From: Deltaproteobacteria bacterium
GTDB taxonomy: Bacteria > Myxococcota > Myxococcia > Myxococcales > 40CM-4-68-19
Direction of reading: 5' to 3'
Length of the DNA: 64,000 nt
NCBI GenBank assembly: GCA_005879315.1
Contig: VBLC01000035.1
Coordinates: 65,686 to 129,685, forward strand
Below are positions 1,017 through 18,595 of the stretch, one piece after another; the first letter of the stretch is position 1, and every line of letters begins with the position of its first letter. The notes under the pieces are model-generated. The model did not search any database and was not told where the DNA came from. It was given only the letters and a program-made list of their open reading frames with translations. Made by a program: the position numbers and the translations under genes.

Positions 1017-1856
1017 TCAGCCCGGCGGCTCTGCGCGGGGCTCTTTTGCGCGCCCTTCGTCCAAGAGAGCGCGAACCAGAGCGTGCGGCGTTTCCAGGTG
1101 CGGCAGGTGGCCGGCATCTTTCAGGAGCACGAAGTCGGCGGCCGGCAGCGCGCGGCGGAAGAAGGCGAGCGACCCCGGCGGCAGCAGGCGATCCCGCGCG
1201 CCCCAGATGAGCCGCAGCGGAATCCGCAGCGCGAGCAGCTCGGCCTCGCGGAGGAAATCCTCCTCGGTGACGGCGTCGAGGACGCCCTGCGCCGCCGGGG
1301 CACGCATGGCCTTGATGACCTCGCCGGGAAAGAGCCGCAGCGCGATGGGTGGGCGGTGGAAGGCCGCTTTCATGTACCGCGTCGCTCCCGCCCGGTCGTG
1401 GGCGGAGACGAGCTGGCGGAAGGGCGCCCACTCTTCGCGCGCGAGCAGCGCGCCGGCGGGATTGATCAACGTCAGGCCCGAGGGCCGCACAACTCCGAGC
1501 AGCGCGAGCCGCAGCGCGATCCAGCCGCCCAGCGAATGGCCGACGAGCAGCGGCGTGCGCAGCGACTGCGCGTAATGGGCGACAGCCGCGGCGAGCGTCG
1601 AGAGGCGCCAGTCCGGCGGCGGGCCAGAGAGGCCGTGCCCCGGCAAGTCGAGCAGGTGCACCTGATGGCGGCGCGCGAGCGGCCCGGCGATCAGCGCCCA
1701 GCCGGCGATCGAGTCGCCCAGCCCATGCAGGAGCAACAGCTCCGGCCCGCGCCCCCGGACTGCGAAGCGCAAGCGGCCCTGCGGAGTGTCGACGAAGCCG
1801 ACTCGCGCGCCGCGCTCCGCGAGGCGGCGCATCACCGCGAGGGCCAGCTTCTGCAT
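1017..1856 (-). CDS. alpha/beta-fold hydrolase
   Basis: 279-aa track ORF. It has LLLLHGLGDS near the N-terminus and the nucleophile elbow GHSLGG. ATG at 1856 lies 3 nt after the upstream stop. Confidence 0.8.
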   Translation of the reverse strand: MQKLALAVMRRLAERGARVGFVDTPQGRLRFAVRGRGPELLLLHGLGDSIAGWALIAGPLARRHQVHLLDLPGHGLSGPPPDWRLSTLAAAVAHYAQSLRTPLLVGHSLGGWIALRLALLGVVRPSGLTLINPAGALLAREEWAPFRQLVSAHDRAGATRYMKAAFHRPPIALRLFPGEVIKAMRAPAAQGVLDAVTEEDFLREAELLALRIPLRLIWGARDRLLPPGSLAFFRRALPAADFVLLKDAGHLPHLETPHALVRALLDEGRAKEPRAEPPG

Positions 1857-1859
1857 CTG

Positions 1860-2072
1860 CTACAGATCGGCGGGCCGCAGCGTGCTGCGGCCGTTCTCCT
1901 TGGCGCGCTGAATGGCTCTCTCCACCGTCTGGCGCACGTGGTCGGAGAGCGCGTTGATGAACTCGTCGGAGGTGCGCATCTCCTTTTCGCGGATGACGTC
2001 CCGCACCTTGCTCTGCACGATCAAGAGGCCGCCCTGCTCCTTCTTCGCTCCACCCTCGGCTTGCTCGCCCAT
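1860..2072 (-). CDS. small histone-fold (HBb/Bd0055-like bacterial histone) candidate, 70 aa
   Basis: C-terminal part of track ORF 1860..2405. ATG at 2072 is preceded by GGAGG 7 nt upstream. Sequence: MGEQAEGGAKKEQGGLLIVQSKVRDVIREKEMRTSDEFINALSDHVRQTVERAIQRAKENGRSTLRPADL. The pattern matches my recollection of singlet bacterial/archaeal histone folds. Confidence 0.6.
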   Translation of the reverse strand: MGEQAEGGAKKEQGGLLIVQSKVRDVIREKEMRTSDEFINALSDHVRQTVERAIQRAKENGRSTLRPADL

Positions 2073-2110
2073 GTATGGCCCTCCGCGCGCGCCTCTGTAA
2101 CAAAGCGGCC

Positions 2111-2971
2111 TCATCCCCGCAAGAAGCGGAGTGCGGCCGTGAAGTCGTCGGGCATCTCCGCGCGCAGCCGCAGCGTGCCGCCTTGAGGGTGGCGGATCTC
2201 GAGCGAGAGGGCGTGCAAGAGCGGCCGGGCGAGGTCGAGGCGGCTGCCGCTCTGGCGAGTGACGAAGAGCGGCCCGCCGTGGCGCGAATCGCCGAGCAGC
2301 GAGCAGCCGAGCTCGCGCAAGTGAATGCGGATCTGGTGCGTACGGCCGGTTGCGGGGAAAGCCGCGAGGAGCGCGGCTTCGGGGAATCGCTCGAGCACCT
2401 TCCATCTGGTGGCGGCGGGCTCGCCGGCGATGGGGGAATCGATCGCCCCTTCCTCGCCGCGCGGCTGGCCGCTCACCAGGGCGCGATATTCCTTGTGCGC
2501 GCGCCGTGAGCGGAACTCCTCGAGCAGCGCCGCCTGCGCTCTTTTGCTGCGGGCGAGGATGGTGACGCCGGTCGTGCCGCGGTCGAGGCGGTGGACGAGC
2601 AGCGCGGGACCGCCGATCAAATCGCTGCAGAGATCGGGCAGGGAGGGGCCGCCCTGGCGATCCTCTTGCGCGCTCACTCCGGCGGGCTTGTCCACCGCGA
2701 CCACGAGCTCGTCGAGGTGGAGGATGCGCTCCTTGCCGAGCTCTGCCGCGGCGGGCTCGCGCAGATCGACCTCCACGCCGTCGCCCGCTCCGACCACGCT
2801 CGCCGGATCGCGCTGCCTTTGCCCGCGCAAGAAGGCCGCTCCGCGGAGGATGGCAGCTCGCGCCGTCTCCTCCGGCACGCCACCGCGCACGGCGATGAAG
2901 CGCGCCAGCTCCGTTCCGGCATCGGCCTGCCGCGCGGTGAGCTTCAGCCGCGCCGGCGCCCGCTTCGGCAC
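2111..2971 (-). CDS. RluA-family pseudouridine synthase (S4-like N-terminus)
   Basis: 286 aa. Motifs: VAVDKPAGV, catalytic HRLDRGTTGV, and HQIRIH near the C-terminus. Confidence 0.85.
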   Translation of the reverse strand: MPKRAPARLKLTARQADAGTELARFIAVRGGVPEETARAAILRGAAFLRGQRQRDPASVVGAGDGVEVDLREPAAAELGKERILHLDELVVAVDKPAGVSAQEDRQGGPSLPDLCSDLIGGPALLVHRLDRGTTGVTILARSKRAQAALLEEFRSRRAHKEYRALVSGQPRGEEGAIDSPIAGEPAATRWKVLERFPEAALLAAFPATGRTHQIRIHLRELGCSLLGDSRHGGPLFVTRQSGSRLDLARPLLHALSLEIRHPQGGTLRLRAEMPDDFTAALRFLRG

Positions 2972-2980
2972 TGCGCTGCC

Positions 2981-3331
2981 TCAGCCCTTCTCGACCACCC
3001 GGACGGGGAATTTCGAGATCGCCGAGCAGACCATCCCCTGCCGCCCGGCGACGACGTCGAAGAACACTCCCCGAGGCGCCAGCGCCACCGCGCCTGGGGC
3101 GAGCGGGATGCGGAGCTCGTTTCCGGCGGCGGTGGTCTCGAGCACGAGCTCGCCGGATCCCTGCACGCAGAGAAAAGCCCGGTCCGCGTCGGGAAGCTTG
3201 TGCCAGCCCATCGCCTGCATCCCTTTGAGATAGACGCCGTCGACGAGAAGCTGGTCGGTCTTCACCGCGTGAAGCACGTTGGGCTTGTCGTCCGTGTAGC
3301 GCGCGTCGGCGATGAGGTTGACCGATTGCAC
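2981..3331 (-). CDS. cupin-domain protein
   Basis: 116 aa, small beta-barrel-like sequence (GWHKLPDADRAFLCVQGSGELVLE...LAPGAVALAPRGVFF). Sits tightly in the operon. Confidence 0.55.
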   Translation of the reverse strand: MQSVNLIADARYTDDKPNVLHAVKTDQLLVDGVYLKGMQAMGWHKLPDADRAFLCVQGSGELVLETTAAGNELRIPLAPGAVALAPRGVFFDVVAGRQGMVCSAISKFPVRVVEKG

Positions 3332-3341
3332 GAGCGAGTCC

Positions 3342-4112
3342 TCAGAACTGCGCCGGCGCGGGCGTGGCCGACTTGTTGTAGAGCAGCTTGGCGATGCCCC
3401 ACCCGACGAGCAGGAAGATGAGCACGATCACCCAGGCGTAATCGCTGCCGTAGACGGTGGGGAAGTGATTGGAGACCATGAAGAGGATGAGGGGGATGCT
3501 CATGTACGTATTGTGCTTGCTGCGCAGCCCGGCCAGCGCCGCCACCGATGGGTCGGGCGCCGGAGCGGTGCCCTTCACCCCGGCGATGATCTTCCGCTGG
3601 TTGGGCCAGATGCGCATCCAGACGTTGGCGAACATGATCGTGCCGAGCGTGCCGCCGGCGTAGATGAAGACGGCGCGGCCGCCCATCAACAGGCTGAAGA
3701 CGAAGAGCACGATGGCGAAGAGGACGAAGGAGATGACCGCGCCGGCCATCTCGTTCTTGAGCTGCTTCCAGAGCACGTCGTAGACGAAGAAAGAGACCAG
3801 CGCGATGAGGAGCGCGACCCCGCCCGAGCCGTAGCTGCTCATGTTGCCGCCCATGGCGTTGCCTGCCCAGTAGACCACCCAGAGGAGCAGCACGCCGGTG
3901 ATCCAGGTGTAGGCCGCGCCCCAGCGGAACCAGTAGAGCGCGCGGGGGATCAGCTCGGGAATGACCTTCTTGCGCGAGTCGGCGTCATAGGTCTTGGCCA
4001 GCTGCGCGTTGACGAAGTTGAAGAACCAGAGATGGCCGATCCACATCACGCCCGCGACCACGTGAATCCAGCGGAAGATGAGGTTGAGCCACTCGGACAC
4101 GTTCGAGTCCAT
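3342..4112 (-). CDS. polytopic membrane protein (COG3748 / urate-oxidase-N-like family, from memory)
   Basis: Real part of track ORF 3342..4724, starting at ATG 4112: MDSNVSEWLNLIFRWIHVVAGVMWIGHLWFFNFVNAQ... It has several hydrophobic helices. The upstream part of the track ORF is R/A-rich noise. Confidence 0.7.
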   Translation of the reverse strand: MDSNVSEWLNLIFRWIHVVAGVMWIGHLWFFNFVNAQLAKTYDADSRKKVIPELIPRALYWFRWGAAYTWITGVLLLWVVYWAGNAMGGNMSSYGSGGVALLIALVSFFVYDVLWKQLKNEMAGAVISFVLFAIVLFVFSLLMGGRAVFIYAGGTLGTIMFANVWMRIWPNQRKIIAGVKGTAPAPDPSVAALAGLRSKHNTYMSIPLILFMVSNHFPTVYGSDYAWVIVLIFLLVGWGIAKLLYNKSATPAPAQF

Positions 4113-4226
4113 CGATCCTCCCCGAGCAGGATTGCGCGCGCACCTTAGCGTTCCGCGATCGCGCCGTCGAGTCTCGGGTTGTGTTCGCGCCGCGCGCGCC
4201 CCAGCTTTGCGCGCAAGGAGGCAGAC

Positions 4227-4826
4227 ATGAGCAAGCGCTACGAGCCGAAGAACTTCCCGAGGCTCAAGGGCCTGTCCGGCATCTCGGACAGCCTGCTGCA
4301 GGACCACTTCAAGCTCTACGAGGGCTACGTCAAGAACGTCAATGAGCTCAATTCCCAGCTCGAGCAGATCCTCAAGGATGGCAAGGCCAAGGGAACCAAC
4401 CCGGCGTTCGCCGAGCTGACCCGCTGGCTGGGATTCGAGTACGGCGGCATGGTGCTGCACGAGCTCTACTTCGCGAACCTCTCGCCGGAGCCCGACCCGC
4501 TGGTGAAGGGCGGCCCGCTCGGCGCGGCGCTGGTCAAGGCTTTCGGCACCGTCGAGGCCTGGCTGGAGGACTTCAAGGCCATCGCCGGCATGCGCGGGGT
4601 GGGCTGGGCCATCTGCTACCAGAATCCGGAGACCAGGGAGGTCTCGAACCACTGGGTGGAGCTGCACAACAGCGGCCATCCGCCGGGGTTCAAGCCCATC
4701 GTGGTGATGGATTGCTGGGAGCACGCCTTCGTCCCCGACTACAAGGTGACCGAGCGGGCCAAGTACATCGACGCGTATTTCCGCAATCTCGACTGGAAGG
4801 CTTGCGAGGCGCGGCTGATCAAGTAG
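4227..4826 (+). CDS. Fe/Mn superoxide dismutase family protein (divergent)
   Basis: ATG 4227 follows AAGGAGG (4215-4221). Candidate metal ligands are present: DHFKLYEGYV (His), MVLHELYF (His), DCWEHAF (Asp, His). The N-terminal motif deviates from the canonical HHxKHH. Confidence 0.8.
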   Translation: MSKRYEPKNFPRLKGLSGISDSLLQDHFKLYEGYVKNVNELNSQLEQILKDGKAKGTNPAFAELTRWLGFEYGGMVLHELYFANLSPEPDPLVKGGPLGAALVKAFGTVEAWLEDFKAIAGMRGVGWAICYQNPETREVSNHWVELHNSGHPPGFKPIVVMDCWEHAFVPDYKVTERAKYIDAYFRNLDWKACEARLIK

Positions 4827-4836
4827 ACGTTGGGGC

Positions 4837-6327
4837 GTGATCCGGGAGCTGCCTGAGCTGCGCGAGGACGCAGCGGGACTTTCGCGCGCGCTGGCGCGGA
4901 ATCGCTACCGCCGCGCAGCCGGGTTGTCCGCGGAGGAGACGCTGCGCGAGATGCTCGCCGCGCACCCGCTCGCTGCCAGCGCGGAGGGCCTGGCGCAGGC
5001 GAGCGAGGCGCTGGCAGAGGCGGAGACCGAGGAGCCGAAGCGGCCGGCGCGCATCGCGCGGCTCTCGGCGCTGCGCGATTTTCTCCTGCGGGCGCGCGCG
5101 GAGGCGCTCGAGCCGGCCGCAGCGGAGGATCTGTGGAGGCTGCCTGCCCGGCCGCTCGTGCGGCCGCCGGGGGATGCCGGGCTGCACGGCGCCCTGCCGG
5201 CGATCGCGGTCGAGCGGGAGCTGTCGATTCTCCGCTCGCGGGAGAGGCGGGCGGAGATGGAGCGCGCGCTGGCCGCGGCGCTGCAGCCGGCCGATGCGGC
5301 GCGAGGCGCGGTCTGGGACGCGGCGCAAGAGGCGCTGGGCGATCTGCCGCCGTTCGCGCTGCATGCGCGAGGCTGGACCACGCAGGGCTCGCCCGAGGTG
5401 GCGGCAGAGCGCGTGCTGCAAGGCACGGACGCGGTCATGTCCGACCTGGGCGGCTGGCTCCTGCAGCGCCATTCCGAAGCGGGCGGCGGCGCCGAACGGC
5501 ACGACGTGCTCCATCTGCTCCACGCCCCTCGCTGCGCGAGCGCCTTTCCCAGAGGCGAGATGATGCGGACCGTGCGGCGCTGGACGGAGATGCTGCGCCT
5601 CGAATTCGCAGCGAAGATCGACGACGAGGTACGGCCGCTGAAGATGTCGGGCGCTTGCGCCGAGGCGATCGATCCTCCCTACGAAGCGCGCGTTTCGCTC
5701 TGGCCAGAGGAGGGGCCGCGCGCGCTGTCGTCGCTGCTCGGCGCGCTCTCGGTTGCCGAGCTGCGCCTCGGGCCGCCCGAAGATGCGCCGCCGGAAGATC
5801 TGTGGCTCTCCGATCCGGCTGTCCCCTGGGCCTGCCGCGCGCTCTTCGCAGGCCTCTTGCGCGAGCCCGACTTCGCCCGCCGCTGCGCCAAAGCCGATCT
5901 CTCGCGGGACGACGAGCGCGCCATCGCCATCGCTGCGGTCATCGACGCGCGGCTCGCCGCTGCGCGCACGCTCTCGTCCTCGAAAGCGCACGAGCTCGGC
6001 CTCGGCGCGCGTGCCGAGCAGTTCCACCGCGACGCGTTCCGGCGCGCCACCGGCGCCGAGCTGCCCGCGGGGCTGGCGCTGCGCGAGCTCGATCCCTGGC
6101 TCGGCTCCTTCGCCGAATTGCGTGGCCGCTCCTTCGCCGCCCGCGCGCGCTTCTTCTTGCGCGAGCAATACGATCAGGACTGGTGGCGCAACCCGCGCGC
6201 TCTCCCGGCGGTGAGGGGGCTCTGGGCGCGCGGCGGCCGGCCCACGCTCGTCGAGCTCTGGGCGGAGATCGGCGGTGAGCCTTCGGTCGAGCCGCTCCTC
6301 GAAGATCTCGCTGAGGCCTGCCGGTAA
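4837..6327 (+). CDS. hypothetical protein (496 aa, helical, Ala/Arg/Leu/Glu-rich)
   Basis: Long ORF with coherent non-repetitive sequence and GC3 bias; GTG start 11 nt after the sod stop. I recognise no motif (no HExxH). Confidence 0.55.
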   Translation: MIRELPELREDAAGLSRALARNRYRRAAGLSAEETLREMLAAHPLAASAEGLAQASEALAEAETEEPKRPARIARLSALRDFLLRARAEALEPAAAEDLWRLPARPLVRPPGDAGLHGALPAIAVERELSILRSRERRAEMERALAAALQPADAARGAVWDAAQEALGDLPPFALHARGWTTQGSPEVAAERVLQGTDAVMSDLGGWLLQRHSEAGGGAERHDVLHLLHAPRCASAFPRGEMMRTVRRWTEMLRLEFAAKIDDEVRPLKMSGACAEAIDPPYEARVSLWPEEGPRALSSLLGALSVAELRLGPPEDAPPEDLWLSDPAVPWACRALFAGLLREPDFARRCAKADLSRDDERAIAIAAVIDARLAAARTLSSSKAHELGLGARAEQFHRDAFRRATGAELPAGLALRELDPWLGSFAELRGRSFAARARFFLREQYDQDWWRNPRALPAVRGLWARGGRPTLVELWAEIGGEPSVEPLLEDLAEACR

Positions 6328-6442
6328 TCGCGCCTGTGGGGTGTTCGTCCCAAAACAGTAATTCCTACGGCGCCCTCCCACACACCCGCTGAATCCACGC
6401 GCCTTTCCCCGCTGGCCGGAACTTTGCTGCACTCAAGATCGG

Positions 6443-7027
6443 ATGATTCGCCTCAGATATCGCTTCGAGTCGCTCGACGTCTACGCACGCCACTTGCGCC
6501 TGGGCGACGGCCTCTATTTGCCGCTGCGTCCGCAGCCCGGCAGTCGCGTCGCCATCGAGGTGAGCTGGCCTGAATCGCCGGACCCCGTTCTCCTCCATGG
6601 CCGCATCCGCAAGCGCACCCGGCATGGCTCCTTCGTCGATCTGCCCCCGACCTGGATGGTCGGTCCACTCGGCGCCTCGCGCGGCGACCGGCGGGTGCCG
6701 TGCGACCTGGTCGCCGAGGTGAAGCCCTTCGACGGCGCTCCCTATCTCTGCCGCGCGCTCGACGTGAGCCAGCGCGGCGTGCGCCTCGCGACCGGGGCCT
6801 TCGACGCCGGACTGATGGGAGACCGCGTGGCGATCACGCTGCTCGTGCCCGACGCGATGGACATTCCCTCGCGCATCGCCTGGTCCGGCGCGCGCGAGGC
6901 AGGTCTGGAGCTGCTCGAGACACCGCCGGCGCTGGTCAGCTTCCTCGCCGCTTGCGATGCGCAGTGGGAGGAGCTGTCGCACGACGCGGGCTGTCTCTGC
7001 AGCCGCACGGAACTGCGAGCAGGTTAG
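6443..7027 (+). CDS. PilZ domain-containing protein (c-di-GMP receptor candidate)
   Basis: 194 aa. RGDRR (RxxxR) is followed by DVSQRG (D/NxSxxG) about 25 residues later. Confidence 0.7.
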   Translation: MIRLRYRFESLDVYARHLRLGDGLYLPLRPQPGSRVAIEVSWPESPDPVLLHGRIRKRTRHGSFVDLPPTWMVGPLGASRGDRRVPCDLVAEVKPFDGAPYLCRALDVSQRGVRLATGAFDAGLMGDRVAITLLVPDAMDIPSRIAWSGAREAGLELLETPPALVSFLAACDAQWEELSHDAGCLCSRTELRAG

Positions 7028-12627: not shown

Positions 12628-12759
12628 ATGAAACGCGCGGTGCGGGCTCTGATCGCGCTCGCCACCTCGACGCTGGTGGTCTGCGGAATCAAGGGTCCGC
12701 CTCGGCCGCCCGCGCGTGCGGCTCCCGACGCCGGCGTCGCCGACGGGGGCGCGCGGTGA
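12628..12759 (+). CDS. lptM: small lipoprotein, LptM(YifL)/LppL-like (43 aa)
   Basis: Not in the ORF track (too short). ATG at 12628. Sequence: MKRAVRALIALATSTLVVCGIKGPPRPPARAAPDAGVADGGAR. The lipobox is followed by CGIKGP, like E. coli YifL CGLKGP. Its stop overlaps the lysA GTG (GTGA). Confidence 0.55.
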   Translation: MKRAVRALIALATSTLVVCGIKGPPRPPARAAPDAGVADGGAR

Positions 12760-14006
12760 ATCACTTCCAGCGCAAGCGGGGCGAGCTGTGCTGCGAGGAC
12801 GTCCCGCTCGCCGAGCTGGCCGCGGAAGTGGGCACGCCGGCATACGTCTACTCGACCGCGACGCTGCGCCGCCATGCGCGGGTGTTCAAGGCGGCGCTGC
12901 GCGGCCTCGATGTTCTCGCCTGCTTCGCGGTGAAGTCGGCGCCGAACCTGGCGCTGCTCTCGCTGCTCGCCGAGGAGGGATTTGGATTCGACATCGTCTC
13001 CGGCGGCGAGCTCTACCGCGCGCTCAAGGCGGGCGGCGAGGCGGACAAGATCGTCTTCTCGGGCGTGGGCAAGCGCGAGGAGGAGATGGAAGCCGCGCTG
13101 CAGGCGCGGATCCATCAGTTCAACTGCGAGAGCGAAGAGGAGCTGGAGCAGCTCTCCCGCGTCGCCTCGCGCGCGCGCAAGGTGGCGCCCGTCGCGCTGC
13201 GAGTCAATCCCGAGGTGGACGCGCGGACGCATCCGTACGTCGCCACGGCCCTGGCGAGCTCGAAGTTCGGCGTGCCGGCGGGACGGGTGCGCAAGGCCTA
13301 CCGGCTGGCGGCGTCGCTGCCCGGGCTGAAAGTGGTGGGCCTCGCCTGTCACATCGGCTCGCAGATCGACGAGCTGGGGCCCTTCGTCGAGGCGGCGAAG
13401 AAGATGCGCGCGCTGTTTCTCCAGCTTCGCGCCGATGGCCATGACTTGCGCCGCCTCGACATGGGCGGCGGCCTGGGCGTGCCTTACCGCGAGAGGGGCC
13501 GGCAACCGGCCTCGCCGCAGCGGTATGGCGAGGCGCTCGCCCGCGCCCTGTCCGGCCTGGAGGCGACGGTGATCTTCGAGCCGGGCCGGCTCCTGGTGGC
13601 GAATGCCGGCGTGCTCCTCTCCCGCGTGCTCTTGCGCAAGCAGGGCCACGCCGCGCGCAAGTTCGTGGTCGTCGATGCGGGCATGAACGATCTGCTGCGG
13701 CCGGCGCTGTATCAGGCGCACCACGAGCTCGAGCCGGTGGGCCGGCCGCGCCGCGGCGCGGAGGTGGTCGACGTGGTCGGGCCGGTCTGCGAGAGCGCCG
13801 ATGTGCTGGCGAAGCGGCGGCGCCTTCCGCCATTGCAGGCGGGCGACCTGGTGGTGCTGCGGACCGCGGGCGCTTATGGAATGGCGATGGCCTCGCAGTA
13901 CAACGCCCGGCCCCGGCCGGTCGAAGTGCTGGTCGACGGGCGCTCGTGGCGCGTGGTGCGGGCGCGAGAGTCCTACGCCGACCTGGTTCGAGGCGAATCC
14001 GTCTGA
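12756..14006 (+). CDS. lysA: diaminopimelate decarboxylase
   Basis: 416 aa. PAYVYS, FAVKS (PLP lysine), GFGFDIVSGGEL and the C-terminal CESAD...GAYG pattern match group IV PLP decarboxylases. Confidence 0.9.
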   Translation: MNHFQRKRGELCCEDVPLAELAAEVGTPAYVYSTATLRRHARVFKAALRGLDVLACFAVKSAPNLALLSLLAEEGFGFDIVSGGELYRALKAGGEADKIVFSGVGKREEEMEAALQARIHQFNCESEEELEQLSRVASRARKVAPVALRVNPEVDARTHPYVATALASSKFGVPAGRVRKAYRLAASLPGLKVVGLACHIGSQIDELGPFVEAAKKMRALFLQLRADGHDLRRLDMGGGLGVPYRERGRQPASPQRYGEALARALSGLEATVIFEPGRLLVANAGVLLSRVLLRKQGHAARKFVVVDAGMNDLLRPALYQAHHELEPVGRPRRGAEVVDVVGPVCESADVLAKRRRLPPLQAGDLVVLRTAGAYGMAMASQYNARPRPVEVLVDGRSWRVVRARESYADLVRGESV

Positions 14007-14092
14007 GTCTCAGACCCGCGCGCTATACTGTCCACGGGCGGGGCACGGGAGCCCCTTGAACAAGAGGATCTCGCCCGCTGCAGGAGACGAAC

Positions 14093-14977
14093 ATGTCTGA
14101 CTTGCGCGGCTCGATGGTGGCCCTGGTCACCCCCTTCCGGAACGGCGCGCTGGATGAGCCCGCCCTGCGCGCGCTGGTCCAGTGGCAGCTCGCTTCGGGC
14201 ACCGACGGGCTGGTCCCCGGCGGCACTACCGGCGAGGGAGCGACCCTCACCGCCGAAGAAGCCGTTCGCGTCGCGCGCATCTGCGTCGAGGAAGCGCGCG
14301 GCCGCGTCCCGGTCATCGCCGGCTGCGGTACGAACTCGACGCGCGCGACGATCGAGAACGTCCGCCGCGCCAAGGAAGCGGGCGCCGACGCCGCGCTGGT
14401 CGTCACGCCTTACTACAACAAGCCCACGCCCGAAGGCCTCTTCCGCCACTTCGAAGCCGTGGCGAAGCAGGGCGGGCTGCCGGTCGTGATGTACAACGTC
14501 CCGAGCCGCACCTCCCTCGACATGCTGCCCGACACGATCGCGCGCTGCGCTCGCCTGCCGGGGATCGTCGCCGTGAAGGAGGCGAGCGGCAACGCCGTCC
14601 GCGTCGCCGAGATCCGCGCGCTCGGCGTGCCCGACAGCTTCTCCATCCTCGCGGGCGACGACATGTTCACTCTCTCGACGCTGGCCACGGGAGGCCAGGG
14701 CGTCATCAGCGTCGTCGCCAACGTCGCGCCTGCCGATCTGGCCGCGCTCTGCGACGCCTTCTTCGCCGGTGACCTCGGCCGCGCCCGCGCCGCGCAGATC
14801 AAGTTCGCTCCGCTGGTCAAGGCGCTCTTCCTCGAGACCAATCCCCTGCCGGTCAAGCACGCGCTCTTTCGCATGGGCAAGATCGCGCACGAGCTGCGCC
14901 TGCCGCTGGTGCCCATCTCGGAAGCGGCCGCCGCCAAGGTCGACGCGGCGATGCGCGACTACGGAGGGCTGCTGTGA
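14093..14977 (+). CDS. dapA: 4-hydroxy-tetrahydrodipicolinate synthase
   Basis: 294 aa. Motifs: VALVTPF, GGTTGEG, VTPYYNKP, YNVPSRT, VAVKEASG (Schiff-base lysine). Confidence 0.92.
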   Translation: MSDLRGSMVALVTPFRNGALDEPALRALVQWQLASGTDGLVPGGTTGEGATLTAEEAVRVARICVEEARGRVPVIAGCGTNSTRATIENVRRAKEAGADAALVVTPYYNKPTPEGLFRHFEAVAKQGGLPVVMYNVPSRTSLDMLPDTIARCARLPGIVAVKEASGNAVRVAEIRALGVPDSFSILAGDDMFTLSTLATGGQGVISVVANVAPADLAALCDAFFAGDLGRARAAQIKFAPLVKALFLETNPLPVKHALFRMGKIAHELRLPLVPISEAAAAKVDAAMRDYGGLL

Positions 14978-15789
14978 AGCAGATCCGCGCCGTCATCGCC
15001 GGCGTGGCCGGAAAGATGGGCTCGCGCATCCTCGGCGCGCTGCGCGCCGAGGAGGACTTCGCCGTGGTGGGCGCCTTCGAGAGGCCGGAGAGCCCGCAGG
15101 TCGGCCGCGACGCGGGTCTTCTCTCCGGATCCGGACCGCTGGAAGTGACCATCTCCGGATCGATCCAGGGAGCGCTGCAGAAGAAGGCCGACGTCGTCAT
15201 CGACTTCACCGTGCCCGCGGCTTCGCTGCACAACGCCTCGGTCTGCGCCGAGCGCGGGGTCGCGCTGGTGGTGGGCACCACCGGATTCTCGGCGCAAGCG
15301 AAAGCGGAGCTGGCCGGCCACGCCGCGCGCATTCCGCTCCTGGTCGCGCCGAACATGAGCGTGGGGGTCAACGTCCTCTTCCGTCTCGTCGCCGACGCCG
15401 CGCGCGCGCTCGGCCCCGACTACGAAGTCGAGATCGCCGAGATGCACCACCGCGCCAAGCCCGATGCACCCAGCGGCACGGCGCTGCGGCTCGCGGAAGT
15501 GGCCGCCGATGCGCTCGGCCTCGACGCGCAGAGCGCCTCCGTCTACTCGCGGCAGGGCGACATCGGCGCTCGCCAGCCGGGTACCATCGGCGTGCAGTCG
15601 TTGCGCGGCGGTGACGTGGTGGGCGAGCACACCGTCTGGTTTCTCGCCGACGGCGAGCGGCTCGAGCTCATCCATCGCGCCTCCAGCCGGGAGAATTTCG
15701 CGCGCGGCGCCGTCCGCGCGGCGCGGTGGTTGGTGGGACAGAAGCCAGGCCTCTACGACATGCAGGACGTGCTGGGGTTGCGACGATGA
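14974..15789 (+). CDS. dapB: 4-hydroxy-tetrahydrodipicolinate reductase
   Basis: 271 aa. GTG overlaps the dapA stop (GTGA). Motifs: GVAGKMG, APNMSVGVN, EIAEMHHRAKPDAPSGTA. Confidence 0.9.
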   Translation: MKQIRAVIAGVAGKMGSRILGALRAEEDFAVVGAFERPESPQVGRDAGLLSGSGPLEVTISGSIQGALQKKADVVIDFTVPAASLHNASVCAERGVALVVGTTGFSAQAKAELAGHAARIPLLVAPNMSVGVNVLFRLVADAARALGPDYEVEIAEMHHRAKPDAPSGTALRLAEVAADALGLDAQSASVYSRQGDIGARQPGTIGVQSLRGGDVVGEHTVWFLADGERLELIHRASSRENFARGAVRAARWLVGQKPGLYDMQDVLGLRR

Positions 15790-16562
15790 TGCAGATCGCT
15801 CATTACCTGGGCAAGGACGGAGAGATCCTCGAAGGGGTGATCGTGGGCGACGAGATCGAGGAGATCTCCGGCCTCGATCCCATGCTCAAAGGCGGCCGGC
15901 GCGTGGGCGGGAAGCGCAAGCTTTCCCAGGTGCAGCTCATGCCCTGGGGCATGGGGCGCAAGATCGTGCTGGTGGGAAAGAACTACGTCGACCACGCCAA
16001 GGAGCTGGCGAGCGACGTGCCCAAGGAGCCGCTGCTCTCGATGAAGCCGACCACCGGCCTGATCGGGCACGGCCAGGCCATCGTGCTGCCGCCGTCTTCC
16101 GTCTCGAAAGAAGTGCACCACGAGGCGGAGATGGCGGTGATCATCGGCAAGCGGCTGCGGCGCGCATCGGAGGCCGAATGCGCCAAGGCCGTGGCGGGCG
16201 TGACTTGCCTCAACGACGTCACAGCCCGCGATATCCAGCGCGCCGAAGGGCAGTGGACGCGGGCGAAAGGATTCGACACCTTCTGTCCGGTGGGCCCGTG
16301 GGTCTCGGTCGGGCTCGACTGGTCGCACCTGCGCGTCCAATGCCGGGTCAATGGCCAGATCAGGCAGGACGGCAATACCAAGGACCAGGTATTTCCCGTG
16401 CCGCGGCTGCTGGCGTTCATCTGCGCGGGAATGACGCTGGAACCGGGCGACGTCGTCACCACCGGCACGCCTGCCGGGGTCGGGCCGATCAAGGCCGGCG
16501 ATTCGGTGGAGATCGAAGTCGAGGGCGCGGGCGTACTGCGCAACGAGGTCCGCGCAGAGTGA
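15786..16562 (+). CDS. fumarylacetoacetate hydrolase (FAH) family protein
   Basis: ATGA overlap with the dapB stop. Motifs: GKNYVDHAKE, HHEAEMAVIIGK, CLNDVTARD, KGFDTFCPVGPW. Confidence 0.85.
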   Translation: MMQIAHYLGKDGEILEGVIVGDEIEEISGLDPMLKGGRRVGGKRKLSQVQLMPWGMGRKIVLVGKNYVDHAKELASDVPKEPLLSMKPTTGLIGHGQAIVLPPSSVSKEVHHEAEMAVIIGKRLRRASEAECAKAVAGVTCLNDVTARDIQRAEGQWTRAKGFDTFCPVGPWVSVGLDWSHLRVQCRVNGQIRQDGNTKDQVFPVPRLLAFICAGMTLEPGDVVTTGTPAGVGPIKAGDSVEIEVEGAGVLRNEVRAE

Positions 16563-17695
16563 TCCCGCCGCTCAATCCGCTGCTCCTGCGCCTTCCGGCA
16601 TACCTGCAAGAAAAGGCAAATGCGCAGCGCGAGGCGGCGCTCGCGAGCGGCAGGCCTGTCCATGATTTCGGCATTGGAGATCCGCGCGAACCGACGCCGG
16701 CGTTCATTCGCGAAGCATTGCGCAATGCCGTACCGGAAGTCTCGCAATATCCCTCCATCGCCGGCACCTCCGCGCTGCGCAAGGCCATCTCCGGATATCT
16801 GCGGCGCCGATTTGCCCTCGACCTCGATCCCGAGAGGGAAATCCTCCCTTGCGCGGGAGCAAAGGAAGCGCTCTTTCATCTGCCCTTGATCGCTCTGCAT
16901 CCCGAGCGCCCGTTGTGCTGGTATCCCGATCCTGCCTATCCGGTTTATGAGCGGGCGATTCTCTTTGCCGGCGGAACGCCGCGCACGCTGCCGCTGCGCG
17001 CAGAGCGCAATTTCTTGCCGGACCTCGACGCCGTTTCCGCCGCGGAGTGGAAGCGCACTTCGATGGTCTTCGATTGCTATCCCCACAATCCCACCGGGGC
17101 GGGCGCGCCCCGCCCTCATCACGAAAAGCTGCTCGGCCTCGCGCGCGAGCACGGCTTTCTCGTCGTCTGCGACGAGCCGTATGTCGATCTCTACGTCGGC
17201 GCGCCGCCGCATGGAGCGCTGCAGGTCGGGCGCGAGAACCTCGTCGCGGTGCATTCCCTGAGCAAGCGGAGCGGGATGACGGGGTACCGGAGCGGATTCA
17301 TCGCCGGCGACCCGCGCATCCTCCGCGCCTTGCGCGAAGCCCGCGCAAACTTCGGCGTGGCCTCCCAGAGCTTCGTGCAGGCGGCGGCCGTCGCTGCCTG
17401 GAGCGACGACGCGCACGTCGAGGAGCGGCGCAAGATCTTTGCCGCCAAGCGCGCCGTCCTGCTCTCGCACCTGCGCAAGATCGGCCTGTCGGTCGGCGGC
17501 GAAGGCGCCTTCTACCTCTGGGTGCGCGTTCCGCAGGGCGAGACCAGCGAATCCTACGCGGCCCGTCTCGCGGAGCGGAACATCCTGGTCGTGCCGGGCA
17601 CCGCTTTCGGCGCCGAAGGAGCCGGCTTCATCCGGCTGGCGATGGTCCCGACGCTGCCAGATTGCGAGGCGGCGGTGGCGGCCTGGCCGGCCTAG
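16559..17695 (+). CDS. dapC: class I/II aminotransferase, probable N-succinyl-diaminopimelate aminotransferase
   Basis: GTGA overlap with the FAH stop. Motifs: NPTGA and SLSKRSGMTGYRSG (PLP lysine). The function is assigned from its position between dapB and dapD/dapE. Confidence 0.7.
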   Translation: MIPPLNPLLLRLPAYLQEKANAQREAALASGRPVHDFGIGDPREPTPAFIREALRNAVPEVSQYPSIAGTSALRKAISGYLRRRFALDLDPEREILPCAGAKEALFHLPLIALHPERPLCWYPDPAYPVYERAILFAGGTPRTLPLRAERNFLPDLDAVSAAEWKRTSMVFDCYPHNPTGAGAPRPHHEKLLGLAREHGFLVVCDEPYVDLYVGAPPHGALQVGRENLVAVHSLSKRSGMTGYRSGFIAGDPRILRALREARANFGVASQSFVQAAAVAAWSDDAHVEERRKIFAAKRAVLLSHLRKIGLSVGGEGAFYLWVRVPQGETSESYAARLAERNILVVPGTAFGAEGAGFIRLAMVPTLPDCEAAVAAWPA

Positions 17696-17740
17696 CGACC
17701 GACAGGCGCAGATACATCCGTGCTAGCTTGCGCGCCGCAG

Positions 17741-18595
17741 ATGCAGAACCCTGCCGCCGAAGAATTGAGGCTTCCCTCCGCCGACGAACGAGAGCTGAAA
17801 GCGGAGATCGAGGAGGCCCTCGCCGACCGGGCGCTCCTCCAGGGCCGCCACGGCCGGGCGGTGCGCGAGATCGTCTACCGGCTCGACCGCGGCACGCTGC
17901 GGGTGGCGGAGCGCGAGGCGCCCGGGCAGTGGAAGGTGCACGGCTTCATCCAGAACGCCATCAACCTCTACTTCACCCTCGCGCCGCTCGAGACGTACCG
18001 CGCCGGCGACCTGCAGTTCTTCGACAAGATTCCCCCCAAGCAGGACCTCGGCGAGTTCCGCGTCGTCCCGCCCGGCGTGGTCCGCTACGGCGCGCACGTC
18101 GAGAAGGGCGCGGTGGTGATGCCCGGCTACGTCAACATCGGAGCGCGCGTCGGCAGCGGCTCGATGGTGGATACCTGGGCCACCGTCGGCTCCTGCGCGC
18201 AGGTCGGCCGCGGCGTGCACCTCTCGGGCGGCGTCGGACTGGGCGGCGTGCTCGAACCGCCTGGCGCGCGGCCCGTCATCGTCGAGGACGGCGCGTTCAT
18301 CGGCAGCCGCTGCATCGTGGTCGAGGGCGTCATCGTCGAGGAGGAAGCCGTGGTCGGCGCCGGCACCGTCCTCACCGGCTCGACTCCCATCTACGACGTC
18401 ACCGGCAAGGAAGAAAAAATCCACAAGGGGCGCGTGCCGGCGCGCAGCGTGGTCATCCCCGGCATGCGGCCGCGCAGATTTCCCGCCGGCGAATACCTCA
18501 CGCCCTGCGCGCTGATCATCGGCACGCGCAAGGAGAGCACCGACCGCAAGACCTCGCTCAACGCCGCGCTGCGCGACTTCGGGGTCTCCGTCTGA
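17741..18595 (+). CDS. dapD: 2,3,4,5-tetrahydropyridine-2,6-dicarboxylate N-succinyltransferase
   Basis: Left-handed beta-helix hexapeptide repeats (GAVVMPGYVNIGARVGSGSMVDTWATVGSCAQVG...). ATG 17741 preferred over GTG 17720. Confidence 0.85.
   Translation: MQNPAAEELRLPSADERELKAEIEEALADRALLQGRHGRAVREIVYRLDRGTLRVAEREAPGQWKVHGFIQNAINLYFTLAPLETYRAGDLQFFDKIPPKQDLGEFRVVPPGVVRYGAHVEKGAVVMPGYVNIGARVGSGSMVDTWATVGSCAQVGRGVHLSGGVGLGGVLEPPGARPVIVEDGAFIGSRCIVVEGVIVEEEAVVGAGTVLTGSTPIYDVTGKEEKIHKGRVPARSVVIPGMRPRRFPAGEYLTPCALIIGTRKESTDRKTSLNAALRDFGVSV

Follow-up and report, generated by a model that had tools for sequence, protein, structure and literature searches.

A probable face-to-face histone with a truncated third helix and an acidic tail in an uncultured Myxococcota lineage

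We have analysed a stretch of 64,000 nucleotides (positions 65,686 to 129,685 of contig VBLC01000035.1, assembly GCA_005879315.1; hereafter, the window) from a soil bacterium deposited as Deltaproteobacteria bacterium and placed in the Myxococcota. The subject of this report is a small gene at positions 1860..2072 on the minus strand (70 codons and a TAG stop, 71 codons in all, as defined by the translated open reading frame (ORF)), which probably encodes a histone of the face-to-face (FtF) class with a truncated helix alpha3, predicted to form a DNA-wrapping tetramer and to be transcribed from a promoter of its own. Its product, MGEQAEGGAKKEQGGLLIVQSKVRDVIREKEMRTSDEFINALSDHVRQTVERAIQRAKENGRSTLRPADL, has a computed mass of 7.85 kDa, a pI of about 8.2 and an overall net charge of +1, and is identical to the NCBI entry TMA29068.1, a ‘hypothetical protein’ from a metagenome-assembled genome (MAG) labelled Deltaproteobacteria bacterium.

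Homology to histones of solved structure was detected with the single sequence. A phmmer search against 177,635 PDB sequences retrieved HTkC (9F2C, E-value 2.2e-7), HLp (9QT0, 2.7e-6) and HBb, also known as Bd0055 (8CMP and 8FVX, about 6e-6; 5.7e-6 for 8CMP), the next match being the viral histone HmvA (E 0.25), with no non-histone below E = 0.2. With a profile of the 27-member family the same three proteins were found at 1.6e-13, 2.6e-11 and about 3e-9, respectively, and HPhA, HMfA and H4 were added at marginal E-values. Over all their chains, the solved members matched at 2.2e-7 to 6.5e-6 in the single-sequence search and at 1.6e-13 to 3.8e-9 in the profile search. The AlphaFold2 single-chain model has a mean pLDDT (predicted local distance difference test score) of 79.5, rising to 88–93 across residues 21–70, and consists of helices at residues 10–29 and 36–59 and a one-turn helix at 67–69, i.e. 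the layout alpha1-L1-alpha2-L2 with a short alpha3. The predicted structure thus has the histone fold for which the first-pass annotation of this DNA had asked to look, with alpha3 reduced to one turn. In a Foldseek comparison with the PDB, HLp ranked first (E 6.5e-4, target-normalised template modelling (TM) score 0.83, root-mean-square deviation (rmsd) 1.8), followed by HTkC and HBb (rmsd 1.1–1.8 Å for the three) and then by dozens of histone-fold chains from eukaryotes and archaea. The RxTxxxxD motif of histones is represented by R62-S-T64-LRPA-D69. Judged by sequence and by the predicted fold, the window protein belongs to the alpha3-truncated prokaryotic histones as defined by Schwab et al. 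2024 (PMC11390915); alpha2 is shortened in such histones and alpha3 is down to 3–4 residues.

None of the histone-fold models of Pfam and NCBIfam reached its curated cut-off in scans of the window protein and 27 aligned homologues. The best Pfam match, DUF5805, scored 21.1 bits (cut-off 28.5), the NCBIfam model archaea_histone (NF043032) 14.4 bits (cut-off 50), and CBFD_NFYB_HMF (PF00808) surfaced in 3 of the 27 members with E-values of at least 0.046. DUF1931 (PF09123, the Aquifex Aq_328 type) gave no match, and the protein is a singlet of 70 residues, not two fused folds. We rejected these misses as evidence against a histone fold, because the protein matches solved histones significantly when compared with them directly. 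The lack of a significant histone-fold family match had been offered at first pass as grounds for dismissing the proposal; no match rose above its cut-off, yet the histone fold stands, so that this test is misleading here. A literature search on DUF5805 found no paper. JGI labels many homologues of the protein (P0002–P0065) ‘predicted lactoylglutathione lyase’ and others ‘histone H3/H4’.

The first-pass annotation had proposed a bacterial histone similar to Bd0055 of Bdellovibrio, from a Bd0055 sequence that turned out to be accurate (PDB chain 8cmp, VLVVTSKVKKLIKEKGQMNTSAETIDVLSKAIEQLCLKGVESAKADGRKTVMARD). This chain and the window protein share 40% identity over 55 columns, with one single-residue gap in L1, and pairwise blastp of the two gives an E-value of 1.8e-11; the similarity is well beyond chance. 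From that proposal we retain the singlet histone fold, the homology to Bd0055/HBb and the loop L2 with its Arg-Asp (RD) clamp, but not the HBb subtype.

Histones with such a simple alpha3 fall into two groups, FtF and ‘bacterial dimer’, the latter typified by HBb (PMC11390915, PMC12701072). The FtF marker is an Arg and an Asn, both conserved, where alpha2 ends (positions 48 and 52 of the hidden Markov model (HMM)), upstream of RxTxxxxD, and the bacterial-dimer group is without equivalents of R48 and N52 (PMC11390915). Residues R56, N60, R62, T64 and D69 of the window protein are in register with the FtF HMM positions 48, 52, 54, 56 and 61 of Schwab et al., and R56, N60, R62 and D69 correspond to R49, N53, R55 and D62 of HLp. 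R56 and N60 (27/27 each), R62 and T64 are invariant in the family and D69 is nearly so, being present in at least 90% of the sequences. In HLp, R49, N53 and R55 form a dimer-dimer hydrogen-bond network (PMC12701072); in HTkC, the partner of R45 is the carboxylate at the C-terminus of the facing dimer, and the R45A substitution yields a dimer instead of a tetramer (bioRxiv 10.64898/2025.12.06.692711). The corresponding FtF signature block of the window protein (residues 56–70, 1863..1907, minus strand; R56-AKE-N60-G-R62-S-T64-LRPA-D69-L70) comprises the tetramerisation residues Arg and Asn, loop L2 with the R62-D69 clamp, the one-turn alpha3 and the C-terminus. The chain stops at D69-L70, and 55 of 55 relatives from genomes likewise end one residue after the clamp Asp/Glu; a C-terminus fixed in this way fits an interface role for the terminal carboxylate.

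The assignment was also approached with profiles. Histone-fold domains were taken from the best 150 of 1,291 cluster representatives at 50% identity (E ≤ 1e-3, 1.84 billion proteins), and the R...N pair was present in 152 of these 186 domains; an FtF profile was built from the R...N domains, excluding relatives with at least 50% identity. The window protein scored 89.4 bits against this profile and 63.1 bits against an HBb/ZZ-type profile, in a test that is partly circular because the sets were drawn near the query and split by the signature. The controls behaved as expected (FtF versus HBb/ZZ-type: HLp 82.9 versus 44.4, HBb 52.7 versus 92.3). Along with this circularity, several observations weigh against the FtF assignment. 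Plain identity fails to separate the subtypes (HTkC 42%, HBb 40%, HLp 34%), and we rejected it as a classifier since HBb exceeds HLp. Of the six interface residues of HLp, two are not kept (S52 and T61 are replaced by E59 and A68), the HLp DNA-contact residue G29 is D36 here, and the net charge is just +1, compared with a computed +2 for each of the aligned HLp and HTkC fragments. The tail is acidic, in contrast to most tails of bacterial FtF histones. Moreover, the tetramer and the DNA wrapping are predictions from conserved residues.

The two interface replacements would also be in line with an HBb/Bd0055-like ‘bacterial dimer’, a protein that stays dimeric and either bends DNA sharply, like HU/IHF, or coats it. 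The similarity to HBb is significant in the PDB search as well as over the 55 aligned residues, the truncated alpha3 and the RD clamp are common to both proteins, and bacterial dimer histones have been reported in ‘Myxococcota_A’ (PMC11390915). Nevertheless, we consider this explanation unlikely. Both residues for which the HBb group has no equivalent are invariant here, the HBb/ZZ-type profile gives the window protein 26 bits less than the FtF profile does, with HBb itself showing the opposite, and the family profile places HTkC and HLp above HBb. The bacterial-dimer group is further marked by an RKTxxxD motif and the conserved alpha1 lysines K11, K13 and K17 (PMC11390915); L2 of the window protein reads R-S-T, with S63 invariant, and not RKT, while its basic alpha1 residues K22, R24 and R28 lie at positions comparable to those of the dimer-group lysines. 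As the FtF signature is present and all independent lines agree, we file the protein as FtF-type, not HBb-type; its R...N residues and its affinity to the FtF profile would imply a DNA-wrapping tetramer rather than a DNA-bending dimer.

Among characterised histones, the best structural match is HLp from Leptospira perolatii (PDB 9QT0, 9QT1, 9QT2; PMC12701072), like the window protein a bacterial, alpha3-truncated singlet with a short N-terminal tail, to which it aligns without gaps over 58 residues. Common to the two are the R...N...R triad, the RD clamp, the termination one residue after the clamp Asp and the DNA-contact pattern S-K, K/R, K/R, T and T/S-T. They differ in the tail, which in the window protein is net acidic and family-conserved, unlike that of HLp, and in genomic context (rluA and a hydrolase gene here, SMC and MAP for the Leptospira HLp); whereas HLp is a DNA-wrapping tetramer, the oligomeric state and DNA wrapping proposed for the window protein come from analogy. 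The best sequence match is the Thermococcus kodakarensis histone HTkC (PDB 9F2C; PMC11390915; bioRxiv 10.64898/2025.12.06.692711), which has the critical Arg (R45, equivalent to R56), the RxT...D motif and the truncated alpha3 in common with the window protein, but is archaeal and tailless, has a Glu at the position of N60 and two additional L1 residues, and coexists with nucleosomal histones. HBb from Bdellovibrio bacteriovorus (PDB 8CMP, 8FVX; PMC10627809, PMC11317129) belongs to the same alpha3-truncated superfamily and is similar in size and fold, with the S-K motif and the RD clamp; it differs by having Ser in place of R56 and Asp in place of N60, by RKT instead of RST in L2, and in being a dimer that bends or coats DNA. 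The archaeal nucleosomal histones HMfA, HMfB and HPhA (PF00808) likewise have the histone fold and the RxTxxxxD motif and bind DNA through L1 and L2, but possess an alpha3 of about 10 residues, in contrast to the single turn found here, and a longer alpha2, and form open hypernucleosomes via four-helix bundles; their profile matches to the window protein are marginal (E 0.1–0.25) and below the Pfam cut-off.

By analogy with HLp and HTkC, two chains would associate into the usual head-to-tail histone dimer through the dimerisation helix alpha2 (residues 36–59, 1896..1967, minus strand; helical in the AlphaFold2 model). The HLp dimer-core residues V16, I20, L35, L39, L42, L47 and F63 correspond to V23, I27, L42, V46, V49, I54 and L70. 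Two dimers would then close face to face into a torus-shaped tetramer via R56, N60, R62 and the terminal carboxylate. R56, which stands near the C-terminal end of alpha2 at the position of HTkC R45 and HLp R49 and is invariant in the 27 sequences, may form a salt bridge to the L70 carboxylate at the C-terminus of the facing dimer, and N60 may form a hydrogen bond to R62 in the dimer-dimer interface. Around this tetramer some 60 bp of DNA would be wrapped non-specifically, with contacts through S21-K22, R24 and R28 of alpha1, T34 of L1 and S63-T64 of L2, the latter loop being kept in shape by the R62-D69 clamp. Helix alpha1 (residues 16–29, LLIVQSKVRDVIRE, 1986..2027, minus strand; helix 10–29 in the model) carries the invariant S21-K22 ‘paired ends of helices’ motif, the S-K motif described for bacterial singlet histones (PMC10627809), as well as the basic R24 and R28, and the aligned counterparts of these four in HLp are S14, K15, K17 and K21, all of which contact DNA. 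In loop L1 (residues 30–35, KEMRTS, 1968..1985, minus strand), T34 and S35 align with T27 and S28 of HLp. Taken together, the HLp contacts A13, S14, K15, K17 and K21 are represented by Q20, S21, K22, R24 and R28, and T27, G29, T56 and T57 by T34, D36, S63 and T64, so that 7 of 9 are identical or conservatively replaced. In an uncultured soil lineage of Myxococcota, the protein would accordingly be associated with the nucleoid and compact the chromatin.

It is also conceivable, if very improbable in our view, that the histone fold serves outside chromatin, e.g. in a protein-protein or RNA-linked adaptor. Pointing that way are the constant association of the gene with an rluA-like gene and its proximity to PrmA and RsmE, the near-neutral net charge and acidic tail of the product, the RRM domains and signal peptides fused in some distant relatives, and the caution of Schwab et al. 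that prokaryotic histone-fold proteins need not all organise genomes (PMC11390915). Against it, the HLp DNA-contact residues are conserved (S21, K22, R24, R28, T34, S63, T64), the gene has a promoter footprint of its own and no translational coupling to rluA, its downstream neighbours vary, with the hydrolase gene missing in L001–L003, and HLp and HTkC bind DNA with a similar net charge of +2 (PMC12701072).

The N-terminal tail (residues 1–15, MGEQAEGGAKKEQGG, 2028..2072, minus strand) is modelled with low confidence (pLDDT 47 at residues 1–10 and 61 at residues 11–20). Described at first pass as a Lys/Gly tail, it contains in fact 3 Glu, 2 Lys and 4 Gly, with a net charge of −1; it follows the family pattern M-x-E-x-x-E...KKE and is net negative in 27 of 27 family members. 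N-terminal tails are a common feature of FtF histones from bacteria (PMC11390915, PMC12701072), and those of 44 of the 64 neighbouring singlet representatives are positive. We regard it as distinctly unlikely, though worth stating, that this Myxococcota FtF clade is a distinct functional variant in which the acidic tail auto-inhibits or tunes wrapping, perhaps serving as the principal chromatin protein of its soil lineage, with a dedicated extended −10 promoter whose mRNA is leaderless in part of the clade.

The gene is real and evolves under purifying selection. In a search spanning 5.8 billion proteins we found 96 homologue clusters (E ≤ 1e-3), nearly all of 64–71 residues, derived from metagenomes of soil and sediment and from MAGs that carry the label Myxococcales or Deltaproteobacteria bacterium, and 20 columns are invariant in the alignment of 27 homologues. 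Compared with 20 orthologues, dN/dS is 0.13–0.45 and the substitutions at codon positions 3, 1 and 2 number 494, 203 and 214. That the ORF is a spurious, unexpressed by-product of a GC-rich intergenic region might be suspected from its ‘hypothetical protein’ label at NCBI, the inconsistent JGI labels of its homologues and the absence of any Pfam match above cut-off; the number of homologue clusters and invariant columns, the dN/dS values with their excess of third-position changes, the conserved Shine-Dalgarno sequence (SD) and promoter footprint, the confident predicted fold and the homology to solved structures effectively refute this. The gene is syntenic across about 30 species represented by Myxococcales or Deltaproteobacteria MAGs, in the conserved order SOD - Urate_ox_N - cupin-like - (HisK) - RluA - histone - (hydrolase) - M16 peptidase - PrmA - RsmE, which is maintained even in contigs whose proteins are just 70–82% identical, although the downstream neighbours vary and the hydrolase gene is missing from loci L001–L003. 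This conserved order and the ordinary chromosomal surroundings argue for a vertically inherited chromosomal gene and not for mobile cargo.

No promoter was found upstream of the histone gene by a generic sigma-70 consensus scan, a result that was superseded by phylogenetic footprinting of the orthologous upstream regions. Their alignment revealed, ahead of the histone genes of the window (2094..2122) and of L001–L034, the footprint TTGAAA-N14-TG-N-TA(G/C)A(G/C)N, also written TTGAAA-N14-TG-N-TAGAGC. Its extended −10 element, TG-n-TA[GC]A, is present in 23 of the 29 regions upstream of orthologues, and the −35-like TTGAAA, in which the TGA stop codon of the rluA-like gene is often embedded, in 20 of 29 loci. 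When 489 kb (the window and Myxococcota loci, both strands) were scanned with TTGNNN-N14-TG-N-TANANN, all 23 occurrences lay just upstream of the ATG of the histone gene (23/23). In the window, the putative extended −10 element consists of TG at 2102..2101, one base, and TACAGA at 2099..2094 (minus strand), and the −35-like TTGCGG (2117..2122, minus strand) lies 17 nt upstream of the −10 hexamer, within the last codons of the rluA-like gene; its degeneracy weighs against the reading preferred here. For the histone mRNA of the window, a leader some 15 nt long that contains the SD is predicted. Leaderless mRNAs are predicted for 10 loci (e.g. L008, L013–L017, L019–L021, L023), where the −10 box stops exactly 8 nt short of the ATG and no SD is present, while leaders of 15–30 nt with GGAGG occur in the other loci and in the window. 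Given the conserved footprint, the histone gene seemingly has its own extended −10 promoter, which would fit an abundantly expressed nucleoid protein, although this is a prediction only. A terminator scan found none following the histone gene, its sole terminator-like match being on the opposite strand inside the coding sequence (1873..1892), and the hydrolase gene, where present, is thus probably co-transcribed: transcription would start from the histone's own promoter at the end of the rluA-like gene and read through into it.

The terminator-like sequence flagged on the plus strand is a perfect 8-bp palindrome, GGCCGCAG-CACG-CTGCGGCC (1872..1891), located inside the codons for G-R-S-T-L-R-P. 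It is retained in 21 of 29 orthologues, and third-position pairing matches in 13 of 29, compared with about 12 expected by chance. As there is no covariation beyond chance, we rejected it as an RNA element; it is probably a by-product of a conserved peptide in a GC-rich genome.

The first-pass description of a 70-residue ORF with an SD between an rluA gene and a hydrolase gene agreed with our coordinates, translation and domain matches. The SD, GGAGGG (2079..2084, minus strand; 7 nt from GGAGG to the ATG), is kept in the orthologues that have leaders. Upstream of the histone gene lies a gene for an RluA-family pseudouridine synthase (2111..2971, minus strand; TIGR00005 3e-43, PF00849 5.7e-23) and downstream one for an alpha/beta hydrolase (1017..1856, minus strand; PF12697 2.5e-26), the ATG of which begins 3 nt past the histone stop codon. 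The G+C content of the window is 69%, and that of the histone ORF at codon positions 1, 2 and 3 is 0.66, 0.39 and 0.90, a pattern typical of genes in genomes of this kind. Rfam and tRNA scans of the whole window gave no matches, and a tblastn search within the 64-kb window found neither a second histone copy nor HU. The neighbourhood upstream of the rluA-like gene (2981..4826 and 4837..7027; L001–L006) is conserved and includes a membrane protein of the Urate_ox_N family, a protein of 116 residues with no Pfam match in the window and a weak Cupin_2 match in L004, and a divergently transcribed Fe/Mn superoxide dismutase, beyond which follow a conserved protein of about 495 residues without a Pfam match and a PilZ-domain protein. 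Further away (12756..18595), a lysine-biosynthesis cluster comprising a lysA-like decarboxylase gene, dapA (DHDPS), dapB, an FAA-hydrolase-family gene and a dapD-like succinyltransferase gene is ordinary chromosomal housekeeping context.

Several relatives were noticed in passing. Singlets with the FtF signature (...RAKENGRSTLRPYDL-stop, 44–50% identical) were detected in Nitriliruptorales/Nitriliruptoraceae of the Actinomycetota (L039–L046, L049, L050, L053, L055, L056) with a search pattern biased to the NGRSTL motif; this phylum is not among the main bacterial FtF hosts named in PMC11390915 and PMC12701072. One of these loci (L049) belongs to a cultured strain, Salsipaludibacter albus AS10, and a cultured actinomycetotal host could be useful experimentally. 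Tandem doublets of about 120 residues are common among the close representatives (P0097–P0099, P0102, P0105, P0115, P0117, P0119 and others); both folds carry the R...N...RxT...D signature, so that they would be pseudodimers, and a torus from two chains is possible. Other doublet FtF-like proteins (P0100, P0108, P0124, P0132, P0134, P0179, P0201) have signal-peptide-like hydrophobic N-termini and a first fold with a degenerate L2 (GRLRV, RRAEL) followed by Cys, and in two of them an RNA-recognition domain, RRM_1, passes its Pfam cut-off (5e-9 and 3.2e-6); signal peptides and secretion are not mentioned by Schwab et al. 2024 (PMC11390915). Doublets with ZZ zinc fingers (P0138, P0139), a type already described in the literature, are present too.

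Among bacteria, FtF histones have been reported mainly from Spirochaetota, Planctomycetota, Bdellovibrionota and Myxococcota, for the most part from uncultured organisms (Schwab et al. 2024, PMC11390915; Hu et al. 2025, PMC12701072). A search of the supplements of PMC11390915 for the window sequence and for Myxococcota gave no match. The first-pass suggestion of a new histone-bearing lineage has to be given up, FtF histones having already been reported in Myxococcota (PMC11390915, PMC12701072), and since both the phylum and the class are in the literature, current understanding is not overturned. The findings are slightly new in the conserved acidic tail, the promoter footprint with its leaderless variants, and the invisibility of the clade to Pfam and NCBIfam. 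Bacterial histones are a young field, in which in-depth characterisation exists for only two, the DNA-bending dimer HBb and the DNA-wrapping tetramer HLp. With the window gene, soil Myxococcota contribute a further, well-supported member of FtF type. The clade as a whole stays under the Pfam and NCBIfam cut-offs, and its deposited entries are called ‘hypothetical protein’ or carry a wrong label; surveys built on Pfam gathering thresholds will therefore undercount bacterial histones. For this lineage, work on expression and mutagenesis has concrete handles in the conserved footprint of the promoter, in its leaderless variants and in the acidic tail.

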